64,000 nucleotides of DNA, taken from Dehalococcoidia bacterium. Lineage in GTDB: Bacteria; Chloroflexota; Dehalococcoidia; UBA2979. Location of the stretch: assembly GCA_964291495.2 (NCBI GenBank), contig OZ219871.1:672001-736000 (forward strand). Reading direction: 5' to 3'. Numbering within the stretch: position 1 is the first letter of the stretch; each line of letters opens with the position of its first letter. A program made the translations under genes and the position numbers. This document shows positions 9,931 to 41,190 of the stretch, in pieces. A model generated the notes under the pieces. That model saw only the letters and a program-made list of their open reading frames with translations. It ran no database searches and was not told where the DNA came from.

Positions 9931-10344
9931 TTGGCCGAGTACAACAAGCCCATCCCCGACCCGGATCCAACCAACCAGGTCTTCTTCGACGGCGCGCGGG
10001 AGGGCAAGCTGATGCTCCCGCGCTGCACGACGTGCAACAAGGCGCACTTCTACCCCCGGATCATCTGCCCCTACTGCCACTCCAGCCAGATCGAGTGGTT
10101 CGAGGCCTCCGGCACCGGCTTCATCCACACCTACGCCGTCCAGCACATCGCCTTCGGCGGCTGGGCGGACGAGGCGCCCTACGTCACCGCCTACATCGAC
10201 CTCACCGAGGGCGACCGCATCTTCACGGTGCTCCGTGGCGTCGACCCGGAGAAGCCCGAGGAGATCGAGATCGGCGCCAGGGTCCAGGTGGAGTTCGACC
10301 AGGCGAGCGACGAGATCGCGATCCCGTTCTGGCGGGTCCTCTAG
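9931..10344 (+). CDS. DUF35 / ChsH2-C-like Zn-ribbon OB-fold protein
   Basis: CTTC...YPRIICPYC, ASGTGFIHTY; adjacent to a thiolase-fold gene. Confidence 0.92.
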   Translation: MAEYNKPIPDPDPTNQVFFDGAREGKLMLPRCTTCNKAHFYPRIICPYCHSSQIEWFEASGTGFIHTYAVQHIAFGGWADEAPYVTAYIDLTEGDRIFTVLRGVDPEKPEEIEIGARVQVEFDQASDEIAIPFWRVL

Positions 10345-10374
10345 CCCCGGGCAACGACCACACAGGAGAGACGA

Positions 10375-11586
10375 ATGCCTTTCGACCCATCCATGGAGGC
10401 TGCGATCGTCGGCGCGGCCGAGTCCGACGAGATCGGGTACATCGAACGCCCGGTCACGGCGATGCAGCTGCACATCGAAGCGATCCGCAACGTCTGCGCC
10501 CAGGCCGGCGTCAAGCCCTCGGAGATCGAGGGCGTCGCGGCCCCGTTCGTCGCCGACGGGGTCGCGGAGTACCTCGGCATCCACCCAAAGTGGATCGACA
10601 CGACGGCGGTCGGTGGCTGCTCGTACGAGATGCACGTGCACCACATGCTGTGCGCCATCGCGGCGGGCGTGATCGACCTCGGAGTGATCTCGCACGGACA
10701 GATCGGCTGGTCGCAGCGCAAGACCGGCGGCAAGGGGATCGGGCGGCGGCGGACCGACGACCCGTGGTCGCCGGAGTCACAGTTCGTGGAGCCGTACGGC
10801 AGCTGGGGCGCCCCCTTCGAGTACGCGCACGCGATGCGGCGGCACATGCACGAGTGGGGGACGACCAAGGAGGACTTCGCGCAGATCGCCGTCACCACGC
10901 GCGAGTGGGCCACGCTCAACCCGCGCGCCATCATGCACTCGAAGGAGACGAATCCGTTCGGCGGTCCGATCACGATCGACGACGTGCTCAACTCGCGCTG
11001 GATCACGTGGCCGCTCAATCTGCTCGACGTCTGCCTGGTGACGGACCACGGCGGCGCGGTGCTGCTCGCCTCGCGGGAGCGGGCGGAGAGCATGCCCACG
11101 ACGCCGGTCTGGATCGCCGGCGCCGGCGAGAACATGAGCCACCAGTTGATGCTGGAGATGGGCGACTTCACCGCCACCTCCGCGCTCGCCTCGGGCCAGG
11201 CCGCCTACCGCATGGCCGGCATGGGCGCGGACGAGATGGAGCTGGCGATGCTCTACGACTCGTTCACGATCACCGCCGCGATCACCGCCGAGATGCTCGC
11301 GCTCGCCCCTCGCGGGCAGGGGCCGAGCCTCTGGGAGGGCGGTAAGGCAGGCCCCGGCGGTTCCGGCATCCCGGTCAACACCAACGGCGGCGGCCTCTCC
11401 TTCAATCACAGCGGGATGTACGGCATGCAGCTCCTGATCGAGGCCTACCGCCAGCTCTCCGGCACGGCCGAGGACGGCGTGCACGGGCTCCCGGGCAAGC
11501 AGACCGGCGCCCGGACCTGCGTCGTCAACGGCACGGGCGGCGACCTCTCGGTCACCGGTACCCTCGTGCTGGTGGCCGACGAGTAG
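10375..11586 (+). CDS. Thiolase-fold protein (SCP2/Ltp2-like)
   Basis: AAIVGAAE, VGGCS, CLVTDHGGA, LYDSFT, VNTNGGGLSFNH, VNGTGG. Confidence 0.9.
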   Translation: MPFDPSMEAAIVGAAESDEIGYIERPVTAMQLHIEAIRNVCAQAGVKPSEIEGVAAPFVADGVAEYLGIHPKWIDTTAVGGCSYEMHVHHMLCAIAAGVIDLGVISHGQIGWSQRKTGGKGIGRRRTDDPWSPESQFVEPYGSWGAPFEYAHAMRRHMHEWGTTKEDFAQIAVTTREWATLNPRAIMHSKETNPFGGPITIDDVLNSRWITWPLNLLDVCLVTDHGGAVLLASRERAESMPTTPVWIAGAGENMSHQLMLEMGDFTATSALASGQAAYRMAGMGADEMELAMLYDSFTITAAITAEMLALAPRGQGPSLWEGGKAGPGGSGIPVNTNGGGLSFNHSGMYGMQLLIEAYRQLSGTAEDGVHGLPGKQTGARTCVVNGTGGDLSVTGTLVLVADE

Positions 11587-14205: not shown

Positions 14206-15090
14206 CTAGCCCTGAGCCTCGGGGCCGAAGTCGTTGGTCAGCAGCGCGCCCAGCGTCCGCGGGAAGATCTCGAACATCTCGTCGATGGTCCAGCTCTCGC
14301 CTCGCGCGAAGGCCCGGGCCTCCACCTCCGGAATCGTGTAGAGCCCGACCTCGTTCCGCTCGATCTCGAAGTCCCGGCCGTTCACGTTCTGGGCCTCATC
14401 CGACGCCAGGTAGACCACCAGCGGACCGATCGCGCCGGGGTCGCCTCGCGCGACCTCCGGCTCCGCCCCGGGCTCGGCGTCGGGAGGCATCGTGAGGCGC
14501 GTGTCGGCGGAGGGGCGCAGCGCGTTGCAGGTCACGCCGTAGCGACCGAGGTCCATCGCCACGGTCCGCGTCAGTCCCACGATCCCTTCCTTGGCGGCGG
14601 CGTAGTTCGTCTGCCCGACGAAGCCGAGCCCGGAGATGGAACTGGTGTTGATGATCCGGCCGGAGCGCTGCTGGCGCATGACCACCGCGGCATGCCTGAT
14701 CGTGTTGAACGTGCCCGTGAGATGGACCGCGATGACCTGGTCCCACTCCTCGCGGGTCATGTTGAACACCATCCGGTCCCGCAGGATGCCGGCGTTGTTG
14801 ACCAGAATGTCCAGACGGCCGAACTCGTCCAGCGCTTGCTGGACCATCGCGCCGGCGGCCTCGAAGTCCGCGACGTTGCCGAAGTTCGCGACCGCGCGGC
14901 CGCCGGCCGCCGTGATCTCGTCCGCGACCTGCTGCGCCGGCGCGGAGTCCGACCCCTCGCCGGCGGTGCTCCCGCCGAGGTCGTTGACCACCACGGCTGC
15001 GCCTTCGCTTGCCAGCGCGAGCGCCTCCCCGCGGCCGATGCCCCGGCCGGCCCCGGTGACGATCGCAACCTTGCCGTCCAGCCGCCCCAC
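14206..15090 (-). CDS. Short-chain dehydrogenase/reductase (3-hydroxyacyl-CoA dehydrogenase-like)
   Basis: TGAGRGIG, NNAGILRD, GQTNYAAAK; start at GTG 15090. Confidence 0.92.
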   Translation of the reverse strand: MGRLDGKVAIVTGAGRGIGRGEALALASEGAAVVVNDLGGSTAGEGSDSAPAQQVADEITAAGGRAVANFGNVADFEAAGAMVQQALDEFGRLDILVNNAGILRDRMVFNMTREEWDQVIAVHLTGTFNTIRHAAVVMRQQRSGRIINTSSISGLGFVGQTNYAAAKEGIVGLTRTVAMDLGRYGVTCNALRPSADTRLTMPPDAEPGAEPEVARGDPGAIGPLVVYLASDEAQNVNGRDFEIERNEVGLYTIPEVEARAFARGESWTIDEMFEIFPRTLGALLTNDFGPEAQG

Positions 15091-15273
15091 AGCGCCTCGA
15101 TCCTCGCGCTGCGCCGCCCGAGGCGGGGACCCGCCTCTTCCCCCGGCGCGCAGCGGGCAGGATGGTAGCGGCGCGTTTGGCGCGCTGGCAATCGCTCGAA
15201 CCTCGCTGTTGACAGGCCGCGTACCGTCTCGCGTGAGCACGCGGCGCCGGGGGCGCACGGGAGGCTACGGACC

Positions 15274-16419
15274 ATGAGCTTGCGAGGACGGACCGCGATC
15301 GTCGGGTTCCATGAGCTGCCCACGAGGCGAGCGTATCCCGGTCGCAACACCTTCAGCGTGCTGGCGGAGGCCGCACGCGGCGCCATCAGCGACGCAGGCC
15401 TCAGGAAGGACGACATCGACGGGCTGATCTGCTCGGAGATCATGCCGATGACGCTCGCCGAGCACCTCAAGCTCAAGCTGCGCTTCACGGAATCGATGAC
15501 CGTGCAGGGCGCGAGCGGGGCGAACTCGATCGCAACCGCGGCGGCCGCGGTCCACGCGGGGCTGGCGAACTACGTGCTCTGCGTCTTCGGCGAGTCGATG
15601 CAGGGCGCGTTCCCCGCCTCCGTGCGTCCGACGGTCGTCGAGTGGGAGGACCCGTACGGGCCCGTGGTCGCGGCCAACGGGCCCTACGGGCTGATCAAAC
15701 AGCGCTACATGTTCGAGTTCGGCACGACGCAGGAACAGTTCGCGAAGTGCTCCGTGGACGAGCGGTTCAACGCCGCGGCGAACGAGAACGCGGTCTGGGC
15801 CGGGCAGCCGATCACCATCGAGGACGTGCTCAACTCGCGCTTCACGAACGACCCCCTGCACCTGCTGGAGAGCGTGATGCCCTGCTCCGGCGCGAACGCG
15901 GTGATCGTCACGTCGGCGGAGCGGGCGAAGGCGCTCCCGAACCCGCCCGTCTACATCCTCGGCGCGGGCGGCCCGGCCACCTCGCACTACGAGATCTGGC
16001 AAGAGGACCACATGACGACCAGCCCGGCGACGGTGTCCGCCCCGACGGCGCTGGACATGGCGCAGTGCAGCATCCGTGACGTCGAGTTCGCGCAGTTCTA
16101 CGACTGCTACACGATCCTGGTGATGATGACCCTCGAGGACGCCGGGATCTGCCCGAAGGGCGAGATCGGCGACTTCTACCAGGGGACGGACACCACGTTC
16201 AAGGGTGAGTTCCCGATCAACACGGACGGCGGTCAGATCGGAGCGGGGCAGCCCGGCGACGCCGGCGGCTTCCGCCACATCGTCGAGGCGACCCGCCAGA
16301 TCATGGGCCGCGCCGGCGAGCGCCAGGTGGAGCGCAGCGACCTCTGCCTGGTCAACGGCTGAGGGGGCTACGCAAGCGTCATGACGACGCTGGTGTTCGG
16401 TTCGAGCGCCACCCTCTAG
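15274..16419 (+). CDS. Thiolase-fold protein with in-frame UGA at 16360-16362 (candidate selenoprotein; conventional ORF would end at 16362)
   Basis: Colinear with paralogue 40048-41190; after UGA the frame continues GGYASVMTTLVFGSSATL-TAG versus GGFASVQATLVLGSSATL in the paralogue. Confidence 0.85.
16375..16411 (+). promoter_or_regulatory. Candidate bacterial SECIS-like hairpins downstream of the in-frame UGA
   Basis: AGCGUC-AUGAC-GACGCU (16375-16391) and UGGUGUUCG-GUU-CGAGCGCCA (16391-16411). Confidence 0.4.
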
Positions 16420-16581
16420 CTCCCACAAGCCAACTCCCGCCCGGGAACAACAAGCATCGAGGACGAGGATGAATGGGCGCCCGCCACTCCCCTCTGGTCC
16501 CCCCGCCCCGAGGGTGAAGGAGGGCCCGACCCCCGAAGTTCCGTTGCGCCATCGGAGCGTTCGGAGGTGGGCGGAAGTCCT

Positions 16582-16616
16582 CTCCTCACCCCCGCCCTCT
16601 CCCCAGGGAGAGGGTG
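16582..16616. repeat. REP-like palindromic element (CCTCACCCCCGCCCTCTCCC...GGGAGAGGG family)
   Basis: Same motif recurs at about 31502, 31601, 38310, 50000-50275 and 55581. Confidence 0.7.
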
Positions 16617-16635
16617 CCGGACAGGGAGGGCACCT

Positions 16636-17346
16636 GTGCATGTGATCGTGACGGGAGCGGCGCAGGGGATTGGCGAGGGCGTCGCGCGACACCTCGCCGC
16701 GGAAGGCCATCGCCTCGTGCTCGCCGACATCCAGGCCGCTGCCGTGGCTGCGGTGGCGCGTGACCTCGGGGCATCGAGCGTCGAGGTCGACATCGCAAGC
16801 CCCGAGAGCGCGCGCGAGATGGCGCGCCGCGCGATCGACACGCTCGGTCACGTGGACGCCATCGTCAACGTCGCAGGGCTCGACGCCCCGCCGGGCACCG
16901 CGCTGACAACCGACGATGAGCTGTGGCGGCAGGTGGTGGACGTCGACCTCTCGGGACCGTGGTGGTGCACGAAGGCGCTGCTCGAACACTTCGTCGAGCG
17001 AGGAGGCGGCCGCGTCGTGATCATCAGCTCCGTCGCCGCCTGGCGCGGGCACGACCGGATCACTCCCGCCTACCACGCCGCCAAGGCGGGGCTCCACGGC
17101 CTCGTGCTGGCCCTCGCGCACCAGCTGGAGCGCTCCGGCATCCTGGTCAACGCGATCGCTCCGGGCGCCACGGGCACCGGGGCGTTTACCGACTGGCCCG
17201 AAGCCGAGCTCGAGCGAAACGCACCGCTCGGGCTGGGCGGCGCCGAGCCGATCGCGCGCATGGTGGCGCACCTGCTGGGCCCCGGCGGCGATTGGATCAG
17301 CGGAGCGGTCCTGAACGTCAGCGGCGGCAACGTCAAGGGTCACTAG
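16636..17346 (+). CDS. Short-chain dehydrogenase/reductase
   Basis: TGAAQGIG, VNVAG, YHAAK, VNAIAPG; start at GTG 16636 after GGAGG. Confidence 0.9.
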   Translation: MHVIVTGAAQGIGEGVARHLAAEGHRLVLADIQAAAVAAVARDLGASSVEVDIASPESAREMARRAIDTLGHVDAIVNVAGLDAPPGTALTTDDELWRQVVDVDLSGPWWCTKALLEHFVERGGGRVVIISSVAAWRGHDRITPAYHAAKAGLHGLVLALAHQLERSGILVNAIAPGATGTGAFTDWPEAELERNAPLGLGGAEPIARMVAHLLGPGGDWISGAVLNVSGGNVKGH

Positions 17347-17399: not shown

Positions 17400-18128
17400 T
17401 CAGGATGCGACGGGTGCGGCCGGCTGGACGACGGCGGGCGCCAGCTCCGGCACCTGCGCCGCGAGTTCCATGCCTTCCTCGATGATCTCGGTGAGGCGCT
17501 GCAGGTCGATCAGCCCGCAGAGCAGCACGGAGCGAGCGGTGACCCTCGCCACGATCAGCCGATCGTGTTTTCTTGCATCGAACCAGGCGACCGGGCTTCC
17601 GACGACCCCGAACACGAACTCCGTCATGAGTTCGAGGTTATCGACCCTCACGGTTCCTTCCTCGCTGGCGAGGTTGAGGTAGCGCCCGTACCAGCCCTGA
17701 AGCTCGCGGCGCTTCTCCCAGAACCCCTTGAAGCGTGGGCGCTGGGCGTCAGGGAGGCGGGCGAGCAGCGCGAGGTTGTACGGCCCCGAGCAGTAGTTGC
17801 GGACATCGAGGTAGGTCAGCGCCCAGAGTCGGGCCGCCCCACTCGCACCAGCGACGTCGAGCAAGCGCGCTACTTGCAATGGAGCGTCGACGGTGCGATC
17901 GAGCAGCTCCGCGAGGATGTCGTCCTTGCGCGCGAAGTAGTGATAGAGCGAGCCCTGGCGCAACCCCGCCGCCTCGGCGATCTCGCGGGTGGTGGTCCCA
18001 CGGAAGCCGTGCTCGGTGAACAGTCGCCCTGCCTCGAGCAGGATGTGCTCCGCCGGCTCGATGTCGAGTGTGCTCTCGACGGCTCGAGGGCGCCCGATAC
18101 GTCGACCGCTCGGCTCGCTGCCGCTCAT
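17400..18128 (-). CDS. amtR: TetR-family repressor, AmtR-like
   Basis: IGRPR N-terminus, GLRQGSLYHYF helix-turn-helix and RLWAL...NLALLARLP C-domain parallel the Corynebacterium glutamicum AmtR sequence as I recall it (VGRPR, GIRQASLYYHF, RLWAI...NVGRLYQLP). Confidence 0.8.
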   Translation of the reverse strand: MSGSEPSGRRIGRPRAVESTLDIEPAEHILLEAGRLFTEHGFRGTTTREIAEAAGLRQGSLYHYFARKDDILAELLDRTVDAPLQVARLLDVAGASGAARLWALTYLDVRNYCSGPYNLALLARLPDAQRPRFKGFWEKRRELQGWYGRYLNLASEEGTVRVDNLELMTEFVFGVVGSPVAWFDARKHDRLIVARVTARSVLLCGLIDLQRLTEIIEEGMELAAQVPELAPAVVQPAAPVAS

Positions 18129-22134: not shown

Positions 22135-22473
22135 ATGCCGATCATCATCGGTTTCGCCCAGCAGCGACGGCAGTTGCTCGAGTCCGAGATCGCGCGGATC
22201 GCGGGCGAGCTGCCCAGGCTCGGCGTGCTGCGCGCCTGGGTCACCGGAGAGTTCGGGCGAGGGCAGGTTCGCCCCGATACGCCGCTCGAGCTGGTCGTCG
22301 TGCACGACAACCCACAGCCTCCGCGTCGGCGCTCGGACTTCTTCGTCGATCACCTGCGCCCCCGGCTCGCCACCCACTTCACCGTCTACACCCCCGAGGA
22401 AGCCGAGTCGCTCGAGGAACGTGACCGTGTGCTCGTCGAGGCGATCCGGCTCGCCGAGCCGATCGTCGGATGA
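22135..22473 (+). CDS. Minimal nucleotidyltransferase (MNT)-fold protein with degenerate active site
   Basis: AWVTGEFGRGQVRPDTPLELVVV aligns with LFGSxARG...SDxDLLVV; VYTPEE motif; directly upstream of a HEPN gene. Confidence 0.7.
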   Translation: MPIIIGFAQQRRQLLESEIARIAGELPRLGVLRAWVTGEFGRGQVRPDTPLELVVVHDNPQPPRRRSDFFVDHLRPRLATHFTVYTPEEAESLEERDRVLVEAIRLAEPIVG

Positions 22474-22485
22474 GGGGTGGGTACG

Positions 22486-22902
22486 ATGCCTGACAGCGAC
22501 GCGGCCGCGCACGAGACGGCGCGCTGGCTCGCGCAGGCGCGCATCGACCTCGGCGACGCTCGTGGCTCCGCCGAGGCGAACCGCCACGCGCTCGCCTGCT
22601 TCCTCTGCCACCAGGCGGCCGAGAAGGCCGTGACGGCCTTCCTCTACTCGCGCGGTGTCGAGCTGATCTGGGGGCACGCGCTCGCCGATCTCTGCGAGGA
22701 CGCGATGGCGCTCGACCCCTCGTTCGACCTGCTCAAGTCGAGCGCGGCGCTGCTCGACAAGCACTACCTCGGCGCGCGCTACCCCTCGACACTGCCGGGC
22801 GGCGTCCCGGGCGAGGTCTACGACGCCGAGGACTCCCGGCGCGCGCTCGAGATCGCGGCCGATGCGCTCGAGTTCGTGACGATGCGCCTCGACGAGGGCT
22901 AG
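22486..22902 (+). CDS. HEPN domain protein (sacsin-like HEPN)
   Basis: WLAQARIDL, ACFLCHQAAEKA, HALADL, LDKHYLGARYP. Confidence 0.88.
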   Translation: MPDSDAAAHETARWLAQARIDLGDARGSAEANRHALACFLCHQAAEKAVTAFLYSRGVELIWGHALADLCEDAMALDPSFDLLKSSAALLDKHYLGARYPSTLPGGVPGEVYDAEDSRRALEIAADALEFVTMRLDEG

Positions 22903-39596: not shown

Positions 39597-40019
39597 ATGA
39601 CCAGCGAGTACGCCAAGCCCCTGCCGGTCCAATCGGACGAGGAGCTGACCGCGCCCTTTTGGGAGGCCGCGAAGCGCCACGAGTTGCTGATCCCGCGCTG
39701 CGCGCGCTGCGACGCCTACTTCTGGTATCCGCGGCCCGCCTGCCCGAATTGCCTGCGTGAGGGCTGGGAGTGGACGCCCGTGAGCGGCAAGGCGCGGCTC
39801 CACACGTTCACCATCGTGCGGCAGCCCGCCGACCCCAGCTTCGCCGAGGAGACGCCGTACGTGTACGCGGTGGTGCAGCTCGAAGAGGGCCCGCGCATGA
39901 TCTCGAACGTGATCGACGCCGATCCGCTCACCGAGGTCGAGGTCGACATGCACCTCGAGGTGACGTTCGACGACGTCACCGACGAGTGGACGCTCGTGAA
40001 GTGGCGGCCGGCCAGCTGA
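39597..40019 (+). CDS. DUF35 Zn-ribbon OB-fold protein
   Basis: PFWEAA, CARC...YPRPACPNC, VQLEEGPRMISN. Confidence 0.92.
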   Translation: MTSEYAKPLPVQSDEELTAPFWEAAKRHELLIPRCARCDAYFWYPRPACPNCLREGWEWTPVSGKARLHTFTIVRQPADPSFAEETPYVYAVVQLEEGPRMISNVIDADPLTEVEVDMHLEVTFDDVTDEWTLVKWRPAS

Positions 40020-40047
40020 GCGCGGCGAGGCGGATGGGAGCCACGCC

Positions 40048-41190
40048 GTGAGCTTGCGGGGACGGACGGCGATCGCCGGGTACTGCGAACTGCCCACGAG
40101 GCGCACGTACCCCGGTCGCAACACCTTCAGCCTGCTGGCGGAGGCGGCGCGCGGCGCGATCACGGACGCTGGACTCCGGCAAGCCGACATCGACGGCCTG
40201 ATCTGCTCGGGGGTCATGCCGATGTCGCTCGCGGAGCACTTCCGGCTCAAGCTGCGCTTCACGGAATCGATGACCGTGCAGGGCGCCGGTCCCGCGGGTT
40301 CGATCGTGACGGCGGCGGCCGCGATCCACGCAGGGCTGGCGAACTACGTGCTCTGCGTCTTCGGCGAGTCGCTCCAGGACGTCCCATGGCCCGTGCGCGC
40401 AACGACCGCCGAGTGGGAGGCCCCGTTCGGCCCGGTGATCGCCGCCAACGGCGACTACGGACTGATCAAGCAGCGCTACATGTTCGAGTTCGGCACGACG
40501 CAAGAGCAGTTCGCCAAGTGCGCCGTGGACGAGCGCTTCAACGCCGCCGACAACGAGCACGCGGTCTGGGCCGGGCAGCCGATCAGCATCGAGGACGTCC
40601 TCAACTCGCGCTTCACGAACGACCCGCTGCACCTGCTGGAGAGCGTGATGCCCTGCTCCGGCGCGGCGGCGGTGATCGTGACCTCGGCCGACCGCGCTCG
40701 CTCGCTGCGGAACCCGCCCGTCCACATCCTCGGGGCGGCCGGGCCGGCCACCTCGCACCACTCGATCTGGCAGGAGGACGAGATCACGACGACTCCGGTG
40801 GTGCTGTCCGCCCCGACTGCGCTGGAGATGGCGCAGTACAGCGTGCGCGACGTGGAGTTCGCGCAGTTCTACGACCCCTACACGATCCTCGTGATGATGA
40901 CGCTGGAGGACGCCGGCATCTGCCCAAAGGGCGAGATCGGCGCCTTCTACGAGGAGACCGACACGACCTACAAGGGCGAGTTCCCGATCAACACGGACGG
41001 CGGCCAGATCGGAGCCGGGCAGCCCGGCGACGCAGGCGGCCTCCGCCACGTCGTCGAGGCCGCGCGCCAGATCATGGGGCGCGCCGGCGTGCGGCAGGTG
41101 GAGCGCAACGACCTCTGCCTGGTCAACGGAAACGGCGGCTTCGCAAGCGTCCAGGCCACGCTGGTGCTCGGTTCGAGCGCCACCCTTTGA
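40048..41190 (+). CDS. Thiolase-fold protein (SCP2/Ltp2-like), uninterrupted paralogue of 15274-16419
   Basis: QFYDPYT, INTDGGQIGAGQPG, CLVNGNGG. Confidence 0.9.
   Translation: MSLRGRTAIAGYCELPTRRTYPGRNTFSLLAEAARGAITDAGLRQADIDGLICSGVMPMSLAEHFRLKLRFTESMTVQGAGPAGSIVTAAAAIHAGLANYVLCVFGESLQDVPWPVRATTAEWEAPFGPVIAANGDYGLIKQRYMFEFGTTQEQFAKCAVDERFNAADNEHAVWAGQPISIEDVLNSRFTNDPLHLLESVMPCSGAAAVIVTSADRARSLRNPPVHILGAAGPATSHHSIWQEDEITTTPVVLSAPTALEMAQYSVRDVEFAQFYDPYTILVMMTLEDAGICPKGEIGAFYEETDTTYKGEFPINTDGGQIGAGQPGDAGGLRHVVEAARQIMGRAGVRQVERNDLCLVNGNGGFASVQATLVLGSSATL

Follow-up and report, generated by a model that had tools for sequence, protein, structure and literature searches.

Among solved structures, the best match to the gene described here is CtSal (9MYR; E = 2e-78), a DUF35-bound retro-aldolase of bile-acid side chains from Comamonas testosteroni, followed by 4U4E and the aldolase Ltp2 (6OK1; E = 1.4e-39). 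As set out in part of the published account of CtSal (PMC12329534), mutagenesis identified Tyr302 of its YDCY motif as base and Cys304 as acid, a thiolate-stabilising role is proposed for Gln347 and Gln352, and Gln161 and the backbone NH of Gly391 are proposed to form the oxyanion hole. Here we analyse a relative of these enzymes encoded at 15274..16419 (+) of a 64,000-nt stretch of a Dehalococcoidia genome (positions 672,001-736,000 of contig OZ219871.1, assembly GCA_964291495.2), hereafter the window, whose own coordinates are used throughout unless a genome position is named. We find that this thiolase-fold, Sal-like gene is very probably a real selenoprotein gene with a 381-residue product, in which an in-frame UGA at codon 363 is recoded as selenocysteine (Sec) through a selenocysteine insertion sequence (SECIS) hairpin, and that its product is a Sal/Ltp2-type enzyme.

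A GGGAGG ribosome-binding site can be read directly from the sequence at 15259..15264 (+), 9 nt before the ATG at 15274. From there the open reading frame (ORF) runs to 16362 on the + strand and ends CTG GTC AAC GGC TGA, the TGA occupying 16360-16362 within the motif C-L-V-N-G-U-G-G. Past this TGA the frame stays open for 18 more codons (GGYASVMTTLVFGSSATL; 16363..16416, +) and is closed by a TAG at 16417-16419, giving a complete gene of 381 sense codons with Sec at codon 363. The Pfam domain Thiolase_C_1 matches residues 234-376 of the 381 (profile positions 2-143 of 144), so a stop at codon 363 would clip the end of the domain. A reading of this DNA made earlier from its letters alone (the sequence-only reading) had given the same ORF stop, 18-codon extension and coordinates and had held that stopping at the UGA would delete the last core beta-strand; its statements on the sequence all hold. 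A second position of interest, column 278, lies upstream in a YDCY motif (Y276-D277-C278-Y279; 16099..16110, +), where Cys278 is encoded by TGC at 16105-16107.

The sequence-only reading had also left room for an assembly error at the TGA. Contigs from two public runs, belonging to separate studies, match the stretch without any difference, TGA included, and the TGA is also present in a diverged contig of a run that bears the label sponge metagenome. A 147-nt RNA contig from a metatranscriptome run (X19) covers 16198-16344 and ends short of the UGA, and is therefore neutral either way. As to where such organisms live, besides two runs with near-complete matches, about a dozen runs labelled sponge, coral-reef or marine metagenome share 16-26% of sampled words from 15274-16600. 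Among the four runs aligned to the window (X1, X2, X4 and X19), one of this dozen, X4, shows a diverged relative with 9 differences in 316 nt; this hints at a sponge-associated lineage.

We searched 61 related genomes with the read-through protein and fetched 30 loci from them. Among the 150 matches listed, 45 contained an in-frame TGA (22 genomes; 44-100% identity), and none of the matches listed below 43% identity did. In the fetched loci column 363 was TGA in 22 of 31 rows, the remaining nine being Asn (5), Thr (3) and Ser (1), and in all 22 TGA-bearing rows (21 loci, 20 relatives, 47-100% identity) the TGA fell exactly at query position 363. A second survey took one genome per species across 185,579 species and returned 602 relatives; in the best 80 of these 602 (79 loci), column 363 was TGA in 81 of the 82 rows covering it and Asn in one. 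Together these make a set of 103 gene rows with UGA at column 363 (22 from relatives and 81 from the species scan), hereafter the UGA363 set. The TGA, which might have been private to this assembly, is thus kept at one column across ~90 distinct sequences down to 47% identity, more than expected by chance.

These data bear directly on whether the TGA arose recently as a nonsense mutation, or through faulty assembly or sequencing, which would make the copy a pseudogene or a mis-assembled gene. A Sec-less paralogue that is 82% identical lies in the same window, and broken copies do occur: one UGA363 homologue (L022; genome G017, C4:339432-340235) carries an extra in-frame TAG at query position 154, its N-terminal part sits in a separate piece, and it is probably a decaying copy. 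Yet neither a private mutation nor a sequencing error accounts for the TGAs of relatives at the same column, for the agreement of contigs from two studies and of the diverged contig, or for downstream codons that are still under protein-level constraint. We rejected the pseudogene or assembly error on the relatives' TGAs and the agreement of independent contigs, and consider it barely credible.

The constraint on the 18-codon tail is visible at the level of single residues. Every one of the 93 distinct UGA363 sequences has G364, G365, S368 and M370, and L373, V374 and G376, which are invariant in a 16-sequence alignment of the Sec clade, are kept in the larger set in 91/93 (L373) and 83/93 (V374). 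The codon for Met370 is AUG in 103/103 UGA363 rows, where Sec-less forms have Gln, Glu, Val, Ala or Thr, and nearly all relatives keep the frame and length of the tail up to a stop, with synonymous variation. Were the UGA a genuine stop, yielding a 362-residue product, conservation downstream would have to come from an element of the RNA, for instance a terminator or regulatory hairpin. Two stable hairpins do follow the UGA directly, and the truncated ORF is accepted by gene callers and databases. Nevertheless, an RNA element does not explain why the 18 codons keep frame and length with invariant Gly, Ser and Leu and synonymous variation, nor why the tail can be aligned both with the C-terminal strand in Sec-less homologues and with the Pfam domain. 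Moreover, many relatives carry a second in-frame UGA at column 278, which cannot be a functional stop because it lies mid-domain, and this too counts against a genuine stop. We regard termination at UGA363 as very improbable.

Truncation of this kind is common in public data. An HMMER search of 1.84 billion cluster representatives gave 7589 matches, and we examined the best 150 of these 7589, 131 of which cover column 363. Truncated representatives end either at residue 362 (P0003, P0004, P0009) or at residue 277 (P0016, P0026, P0100, P0116), and in one truncated cluster the members that have names are labelled "thiolase family protein" or "acetyl-CoA acetyltransferase". The sequence-only reading had expected that database entries ending at LVNG would speak for recoding, and many truncated public entries indeed stop at ...VNG.

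The genome encodes what is needed to read UGA as Sec. One tRNA-SeC with anticodon tca was found on contig C6 (ARAGORN), with no other tRNA of anticodon UCA in the genome, together with SelA (424.9 bits), the SelB winged-helix domain (59.3 bits) and SelD (368.3 bits). The selD gene has its own in-frame TGA (motif SCGG-U-AGK; G000:C5:1608812-1609747, -), as does an FdhA-like gene (motif SCNRT-U-HAPS; G000:C6:620132-620695, -); a search for this machinery had been proposed from the letters alone, and tRNA-Sec, SelA, SelB and a Sec-containing SelD are all there. Both of these genes lie outside the window, and each of their UGAs is followed by a hairpin whose loop is ~20-26 nt downstream. Among long ORFs with high third-position GC, 482 of 1168 end in TGA, and the genome has prfB, encoding release factor 2 (RF2; 482.9 bits); because TGA is a common ORF stop and prfB is present, TGA has not been reassigned genome-wide. 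Of the 22 genomes that carry a TGA form, 21 have a SelA match and the one without (G052) is 71% complete, and in two genomes with no SelA match (G020 and G051; 94% and 97% complete) the closest homologues have Ser and Asn, respectively, at column 363.

In the bacterial SECIS (bSECIS) model, a stem-loop stands just 3' of the UGA with its apical loop ~16-37 nt away. Two hairpins follow UGA363 in the window. The first, H1 (16375..16391, +), has the stem AGCGUC/GACGCU (16375-16380 with 16386-16391) and the loop AUGAC, beginning 18 nt downstream of the UGA; when the U of the UGA is numbered 1, the loop of H1 spans nt 22-26 and its stem 16-21/27-32. The second, H2 (16392..16410, +), pairs GGUGUUCG with CGAGCGCC (16392-16399 with 16403-16410) around a GUU loop that starts 37 nt after the UGA. 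The hairpin after the UGA of this genome's FdhA-like gene has its stem at 15-21/27-33 and its loop, GGUCU, at 22-26, and H1 is in the same register. H1 is most likely the SECIS core, and H2 may be a second part of the element or an accessory structure. Both hairpins are as the sequence-only reading had described them, and its caution that the paralogue keeps similar hairpins was justified too.

Folding energies and pairing patterns fit SECIS-like hairpins. The 60-nt segment running from UGA to UAG has a folding energy of -27.7 kcal/mol, compared with -19.2 ± 3.3 in 200 shuffles (z = -2.6; 4 shuffles as stable). Across the family, a hairpin in nt 10-36 after UGA363 is present in every subfamily, with a mean minimum free energy (MFE) of -10.9 ± 3.0 (n = 90 distinct sequences) versus -5.3 ± 3.8 in 10 non-UGA forms, and the second hairpin (nt 31-60) has an MFE of -10.3 ± 3.0 versus -5.2 ± 2.0 in non-UGA forms. 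With a structure that we specified ourselves and did not derive from RNAalifold, 70.3% of cells after UGA363 were paired (66.3 ± 0.5 in shuffles, 0/500 reaching the observed value; 30-48% in slid controls). Double-sided changes in this structure numbered 71 cells against 35.4 ± 3.8 in shuffles, and compensatory changes were seen for both H1 and H2.

Column 278, the acid position of CtSal, is a second UGA site in many homologues. The sequence-only reading had pointed out that the UGA copy has YDCYT where the Asn paralogue has YDPYT; this holds, and the YDCY Cys is itself UGA in 34 homologue rows. Within the UGA363 set column 278 is TGA in 34 rows (2 relatives and 32 from the species scan) and Cys in 69, while Y276 is present in 103/103. 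In a FastTree phylogeny of 106 proteins, which was built quickly, contains some long branches and gives only rough exact numbers, the state of column 278 changes at least 6 times. As judged from these sequences, column 278 is a true Cys/Sec alternation. Where both are present, Sec278 and Sec363 would stand 85 residues apart in two catalytic loops.

The RNA downstream of UGA278 is nearly uniform. A hairpin, AUCCUCGAGGC-CGUG(U/A)-GCCUCGAAGAU, follows UGA278 in 25/25 distinct sequences with its loop 17 nt away, and 87.2% of its cells are paired versus 33-48% in slid controls. Third-position entropy in codons +5 to +9 is 0.00 bits in 31 UGA278 sequences versus 1.2-1.95 bits in 61 Cys278 sequences, whereas the flanking codons of the same UGA278 sequences vary (0.6-1.7 bits); this compares related sequences and is not a formal test, yet its internal control is clear. 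The loops of H1 and of the post-UGA278 hairpin (18 and 17 nt) both lie within the bSECIS range, and both hairpins are in the FdhA-like register.

A UGA that is read through need not be read as Sec, and a near-cognate or suppressor tRNA might insert Trp, Cys or Gly instead. Column 363 lacks Cys homologues, and selenium in the protein is something that we infer. Against such readthrough, the sole tRNA with a UCA anticodon is tRNA-SeC, TGA is a common stop in a genome with RF2, and TGA forms occur with SelA in 21/22 genomes while SelA-less relatives carry sense codons. In addition, hairpins in the FdhA-like register follow both UGAs, and column 278 alternates specifically with Cys. We therefore consider readthrough with another amino acid improbable, and favor a mechanism in which SelB and Sec-tRNA(Sec) would be recruited at the UGA (16360-16362) by a SECIS hairpin inside the coding sequence. 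The core of this element would be H1, with its loop 18-22 nt after the UGA, and H2 may belong to it; Sec363 would then be inserted and 18 more codons translated up to the UAG.

The product is not a classical or SCP2 thiolase, because both the nucleophilic Cys and the His of the GHP motif are missing: these positions are Ala80 and Gln326 (GQP), and among the UGA363 rows column 80 has Ala 85 times and Ser 14 times. Matches in NCBIfam were limited to generic models for thiolases or lipid transfer, each scoring under its cut-off, and no model specific to a selenoprotein matched. An HMMER mapping (chain index minus 24) places Tyr302, Cys304, Gln347, Gln352 and Gly391 of CtSal at Y276, C278, Q321, Q326 and G365, with Thr389 at Sec363. 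The earlier suggestion of a thiolase-like selenoprotein thus stands as to Sec and the fold; the enzyme, however, is not a thiolase proper and matches Sal/Ltp2-type, DUF35-associated retro-aldolases.

By analogy with CtSal, an enzyme of this type with a DUF35 zinc-ribbon/OB partner would cleave or form the C-C bond adjoining a coenzyme A (CoA) thioester. Tyr276 would be the base acting on a 3-hydroxyacyl-CoA, Cys278 (Sec in many relatives) the acid protonating the enolate, and the backbone NH of Gly365 part of the oxyanion hole. Because Sec363 lies two residues before Gly365, in the loop that bears the CxG motif in classical thiolases, it is most likely, on this analogy, a second active-site chalcogen working with Cys/Sec278. 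The sequence-only reading had placed the UGA column in that loop, which agrees with our result, though the exact column is split between Cys358 by profile alignment and Sec363 by the CtSal mapping. From these sequence comparisons the CtSal oxyanion-hole mapping would favor Sec363 as the equivalent of the CxG cysteine, while hhalign aligns Cys358 instead. A structure-based alignment of MsTLP1, in the part of that study concerned, equates CxG with an NGG motif (PMC3406046), and no YSCF or HDCF relatives bridging to MsTLP1 were present among the fetched proteins.

Selenium could also serve a purpose other than catalysis. Sec363 and Cys278 might form a redox-sensitive selenenylsulfide (a diselenide in two-Sec forms) that acts as a switch or as protection. 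Most known selenoproteins are redox proteins (PMC13188914), both sites lie in active-site loops as judged from part of the CtSal description (PMC12329534), and both positions were lost together in two nested Sec-less forms, the paralogue (Pro/Asn) and P0002 (Asn/Val). Two points stand against such a pair, namely that column 278 corresponds to the proven catalytic acid in CtSal (PMC12329534), and that the family has no thioredoxin-like motif, and we consider a redox pair somewhat unlikely. Another reading gives Sec363 and Cys/Sec278 a larger role, as the catalytic centre of a non-redox C-C enzyme acting on CoA thioesters and as a major reason why Dehalococcoidia/SAR202 keep the Sec machinery. 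There the selenolate could, for example, take the place of the lost thiolase cysteine as a nucleophile or proton shuttle (a 'selenothiolase' or 'selenoaldolase'), and we offer this reading tentatively, as plausible while short of probable. The family itself has one or two Sec residues per protein and up to several paralogues per genome.

We then turned to the history of the Sec-less relatives, which have Asn, Thr, Ser or Val at column 363. The paralogue in the window (40048..41190, +) is 82% identical to the Sec copy, with Pro at column 278 and Asn at column 363 (AAC, 41131-41133). Its C-terminus is identical to the 18-codon tail at 14/18 positions, differing by Y/F, M/Q, T/A and F/L, and a further thiolase-like gene at 10375 has Thr at the UGA column; all three comparisons had been drawn correctly from the letters alone. 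In the tree, a clade of 87 rows (support 100) holds 84 UGA363 forms and three nested Sec-less forms: the window paralogue (Pro278/Asn363), P0002 (Asn278/Val363) and L067 (Cys278/Asn363). Because they are nested inside the Sec clade, these Sec-less copies are derived. The AAC of the paralogue differs from TGA at all three positions, despite the 82% identity and near-identical neighbouring codons. Candidate routes from Sec to Asn are stepwise change and gene conversion.

Neighbouring genes tie the family to DUF35 proteins. Among the 103 UGA363 rows, a DUF35 gene lies ≤400 nt downstream in 91 and upstream in 2 (93 adjoining), and the remaining rows comprise 2 with no room left in the locus and 8 without DUF35. 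Five of these eight form the orthologue group of the window gene, located between two SDR genes, and in two others the UGA363 gene opens a tandem pair after which a DUF35 gene comes. Beyond DUF35, the neighbours of UGA363 genes vary widely. In the window the Sec gene is flanked by a divergent short-chain dehydrogenase gene (14206..15258, -), an SDR gene (16567-17346, +) and a TetR gene (17400-18128, -), and the SDR/TetR flanks also occur in the orthologues L007 and L008. The Asn paralogue adjoins a DUF35 gene (39597..40019, +; PF01796 and PF12172) of the ChsH2 type, with zinc ribbon and OB fold. The context MaoC-DUF35-X-ACAD holds a TGA form in genome G014 and the Pro/Asn paralogue in the window's genome. 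This context is likely ancestral, with a duplication after which the Sec copy relocated and both chalcogen residues disappeared from the copy left in place. An active Sec subunit might form a heteromer with an inactive paralogue and DUF35.

Several points weigh against a recoded, Sal/Ltp2-type selenoprotein in which Sec363 works with position 278. What the sequences show is a conserved UGA, protein-level conservation downstream of it, the Sec machinery, SECIS-like hairpins and membership of the enzyme family; we infer Sec insertion and the full-length protein, as well as the substrate and what Sec363 does chemically. Column 363 has almost no homologues with Cys, which is unusual for a selenoprotein: among the 131 covering representatives Asn occurs in 26, Thr in 15, Gln in 11 and Cys in 2, both distant. 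Cys homologues, to which the sequence-only reading had looked for support, were therefore found for column 278 and hardly at all for column 363. On the RNA side, RNAalifold found no single consensus over 86 post-UGA363 sequences (-0.11 kcal/mol), because the register of H1 differs between subfamilies, and the UGA278 hairpin is conserved with no compensatory change, because its sequence barely varies. Rfam gave no match at 16360-16419 at a permissive threshold and none above the gathering score in 15200-16700. The Asn paralogue has H2 intact and H1 weakened; since it still has H2, H2 alone proves nothing, while a weakened H1 and a kept H2 are as expected of a recent derivative. Turning to the enzyme, the oxyanion-hole Gln161 of CtSal is Ala134 here, although G365, the equivalent of Gly391, is invariant, and the proximity of Sec363 and Cys278 is read solely from the published CtSal description. 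An hhalign comparison with the genome's own classical thiolase (L120; probability 88%, C-terminal half only) puts Cys358, not Sec363, at the CxG cysteine, and HMMER alignments give other offsets. Lastly, the Sec copy in the window has no adjacent DUF35 gene, the nearest being at 39597 and 9931.

Species-scan records are labelled Dehalococcoidia, Chloroflexota or SAR202, with three carrying other labels: Sec-form loci L083, L093 and L074 come from metagenome-assembled genomes labelled Entotheonellaceae, Actinomycetota and Rhodospirillaceae, that of L074 on a 1.5-kb contig; spread beyond Chloroflexota by transfer, or mis-binning, could account for them. When 401 genomes were sampled evenly across the phylum, 9 had matches at E ≤ 1e-80, and TGA forms occurred only in the window's genome and one other of the same class. 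The window's genome holds three such genes (C5:687274, C5:1035229 and C5:178843, in genome coordinates). Tandem arrangements were also seen. L019/L085 (879-2060 and 2130-3317) are tandem Sec forms with two Sec codons each and a single DUF35 gene after them, and L068 and L078 are tandem duplicates of Sec forms, each copy in L068 having its own DUF35 gene.

By tblastn matches, genome G000 contains ~24 thiolase-like paralogues and ~28 DUF35 genes, a large expansion of such pairs. Within the window, thiolase-like and DUF35 genes lie at 9931-11586, 39597-41190 and 15274-16419. The window also has five family-III CoA-transferase genes (4496, 25759, 28470, 42589 and 43909) and several amidohydrolase genes. 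At 22135-22902 an ORF of 112 residues that matches nothing in Pfam (22135-22473) precedes a gene with a HEPN domain (22477-22902), and the two could be a nucleotidyltransferase/HEPN-type toxin-antitoxin pair.

The family is a genuine selenoprotein family, widespread in Dehalococcoidia and apparently undescribed. Table 1 of a May 2026 review (PMC13188914), covering 119 families and subfamilies, contains no thiolase-fold, acetyl-CoA acetyltransferase or lipid-transfer family, in keeping with the sequence-only reading, which knew of no description. The main texts of that review and of the deep-Sep and GOS papers use none of the terms thiolase, acetyltransferase and lipid transfer; their supplementary lists could still include the family. 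The BSepDB paper describes Dehalococcoidia as selenoprotein-rich, and thiolase, acetyltransferase and lipid are absent from it. Full-text literature searches on selenoprotein with thiolase, acetyl-CoA acetyltransferase, SAR202 or Dehalococcoidia found no relevant report. Hartmanis and Stadtman reportedly described in 1982 a selenium-containing thiolase of Clostridium kluyveri, whose selenium is said to have been selenomethionine, non-specific and not UGA-encoded; it is no precedent, and our literature search found nothing on it.

Three consequences follow for the study of selenium biology. First, Sec would here sit in the active-site loops of a thiolase-fold C-C lyase, where known selenoproteins are nearly all redox proteins with Sec near Cys, and in many members it would replace a residue proven by mutagenesis to be the catalytic acid in a solved relative, a natural experiment on selenium in acid/base or nucleophilic thioester catalysis. 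Second, the family is large, with the best 80 of 602 relatives almost all Sec forms, and because public data annotate truncated "thiolase family protein" or "acetyl-CoA acetyltransferase" entries, the metabolism of Dehalococcoidia/SAR202 is being read from broken gene models. Third, because column 363 lacks close Cys homologues, the family shows what selenoprotein searches built on Cys/Sec homology can miss.

Set beside the systems with which we began, the gene resembles CtSal most closely. The two share a thiolase fold with no nucleophilic Cys, the YDCY motif, the two Gln residues, the oxyanion-hole Gly and, at the level of the family, a DUF35 partner. They differ in that CtSal has Thr389 and Gln161 where Sec363 and Ala134 stand here, that its DUF35 domain is fused to the hydratase Shy whereas DUF35 here is a separate small gene, that some relatives here have Sec in place of the catalytic Cys, and that the contexts here are not steroid clusters. 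With TcLtp2-ChsH2(DUF35), the steroid aldolase of Thermomonospora curvata (6OK1), the gene has in common the thiolase fold of an aldolase, the Tyr of YDxF/Y and, for the family as a whole, a DUF35 partner, yet Ltp2 uses YDHF with Tyr344 as acid, and here Cys278 stands for the His and Gln326 for the Tyr, so that the Ltp2-type signature is absent. Classical and SCP2 thiolases are alike in fold (Thiolase_C_1), in a YDCY loop comparable to NEAF/HDCF and, as far as the relevant parts of two studies describe it (PMC3406046, PMC7682436), in the CxG-bearing Cbeta4-Cbeta5 loop where Sec would be placed; in contrast, the Cys of their CxS motif is Ala80 and the His of GHP is Gln in our gene. Catalogued selenoproteins (PMC13188914) likewise have an in-frame UGA, a SECIS hairpin within the ORF, co-occurrence with SelA/B/C/D and Cys/Sec alternation, and a minority of their families have 2-3 Sec residues, as here. 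Whereas those proteins are mostly redox proteins with UxxC/CxxU motifs, this family combines two Sec positions 85 residues apart with a C-C lyase fold: the recoding mechanism is standard, and the fold and the placement of Sec are new.

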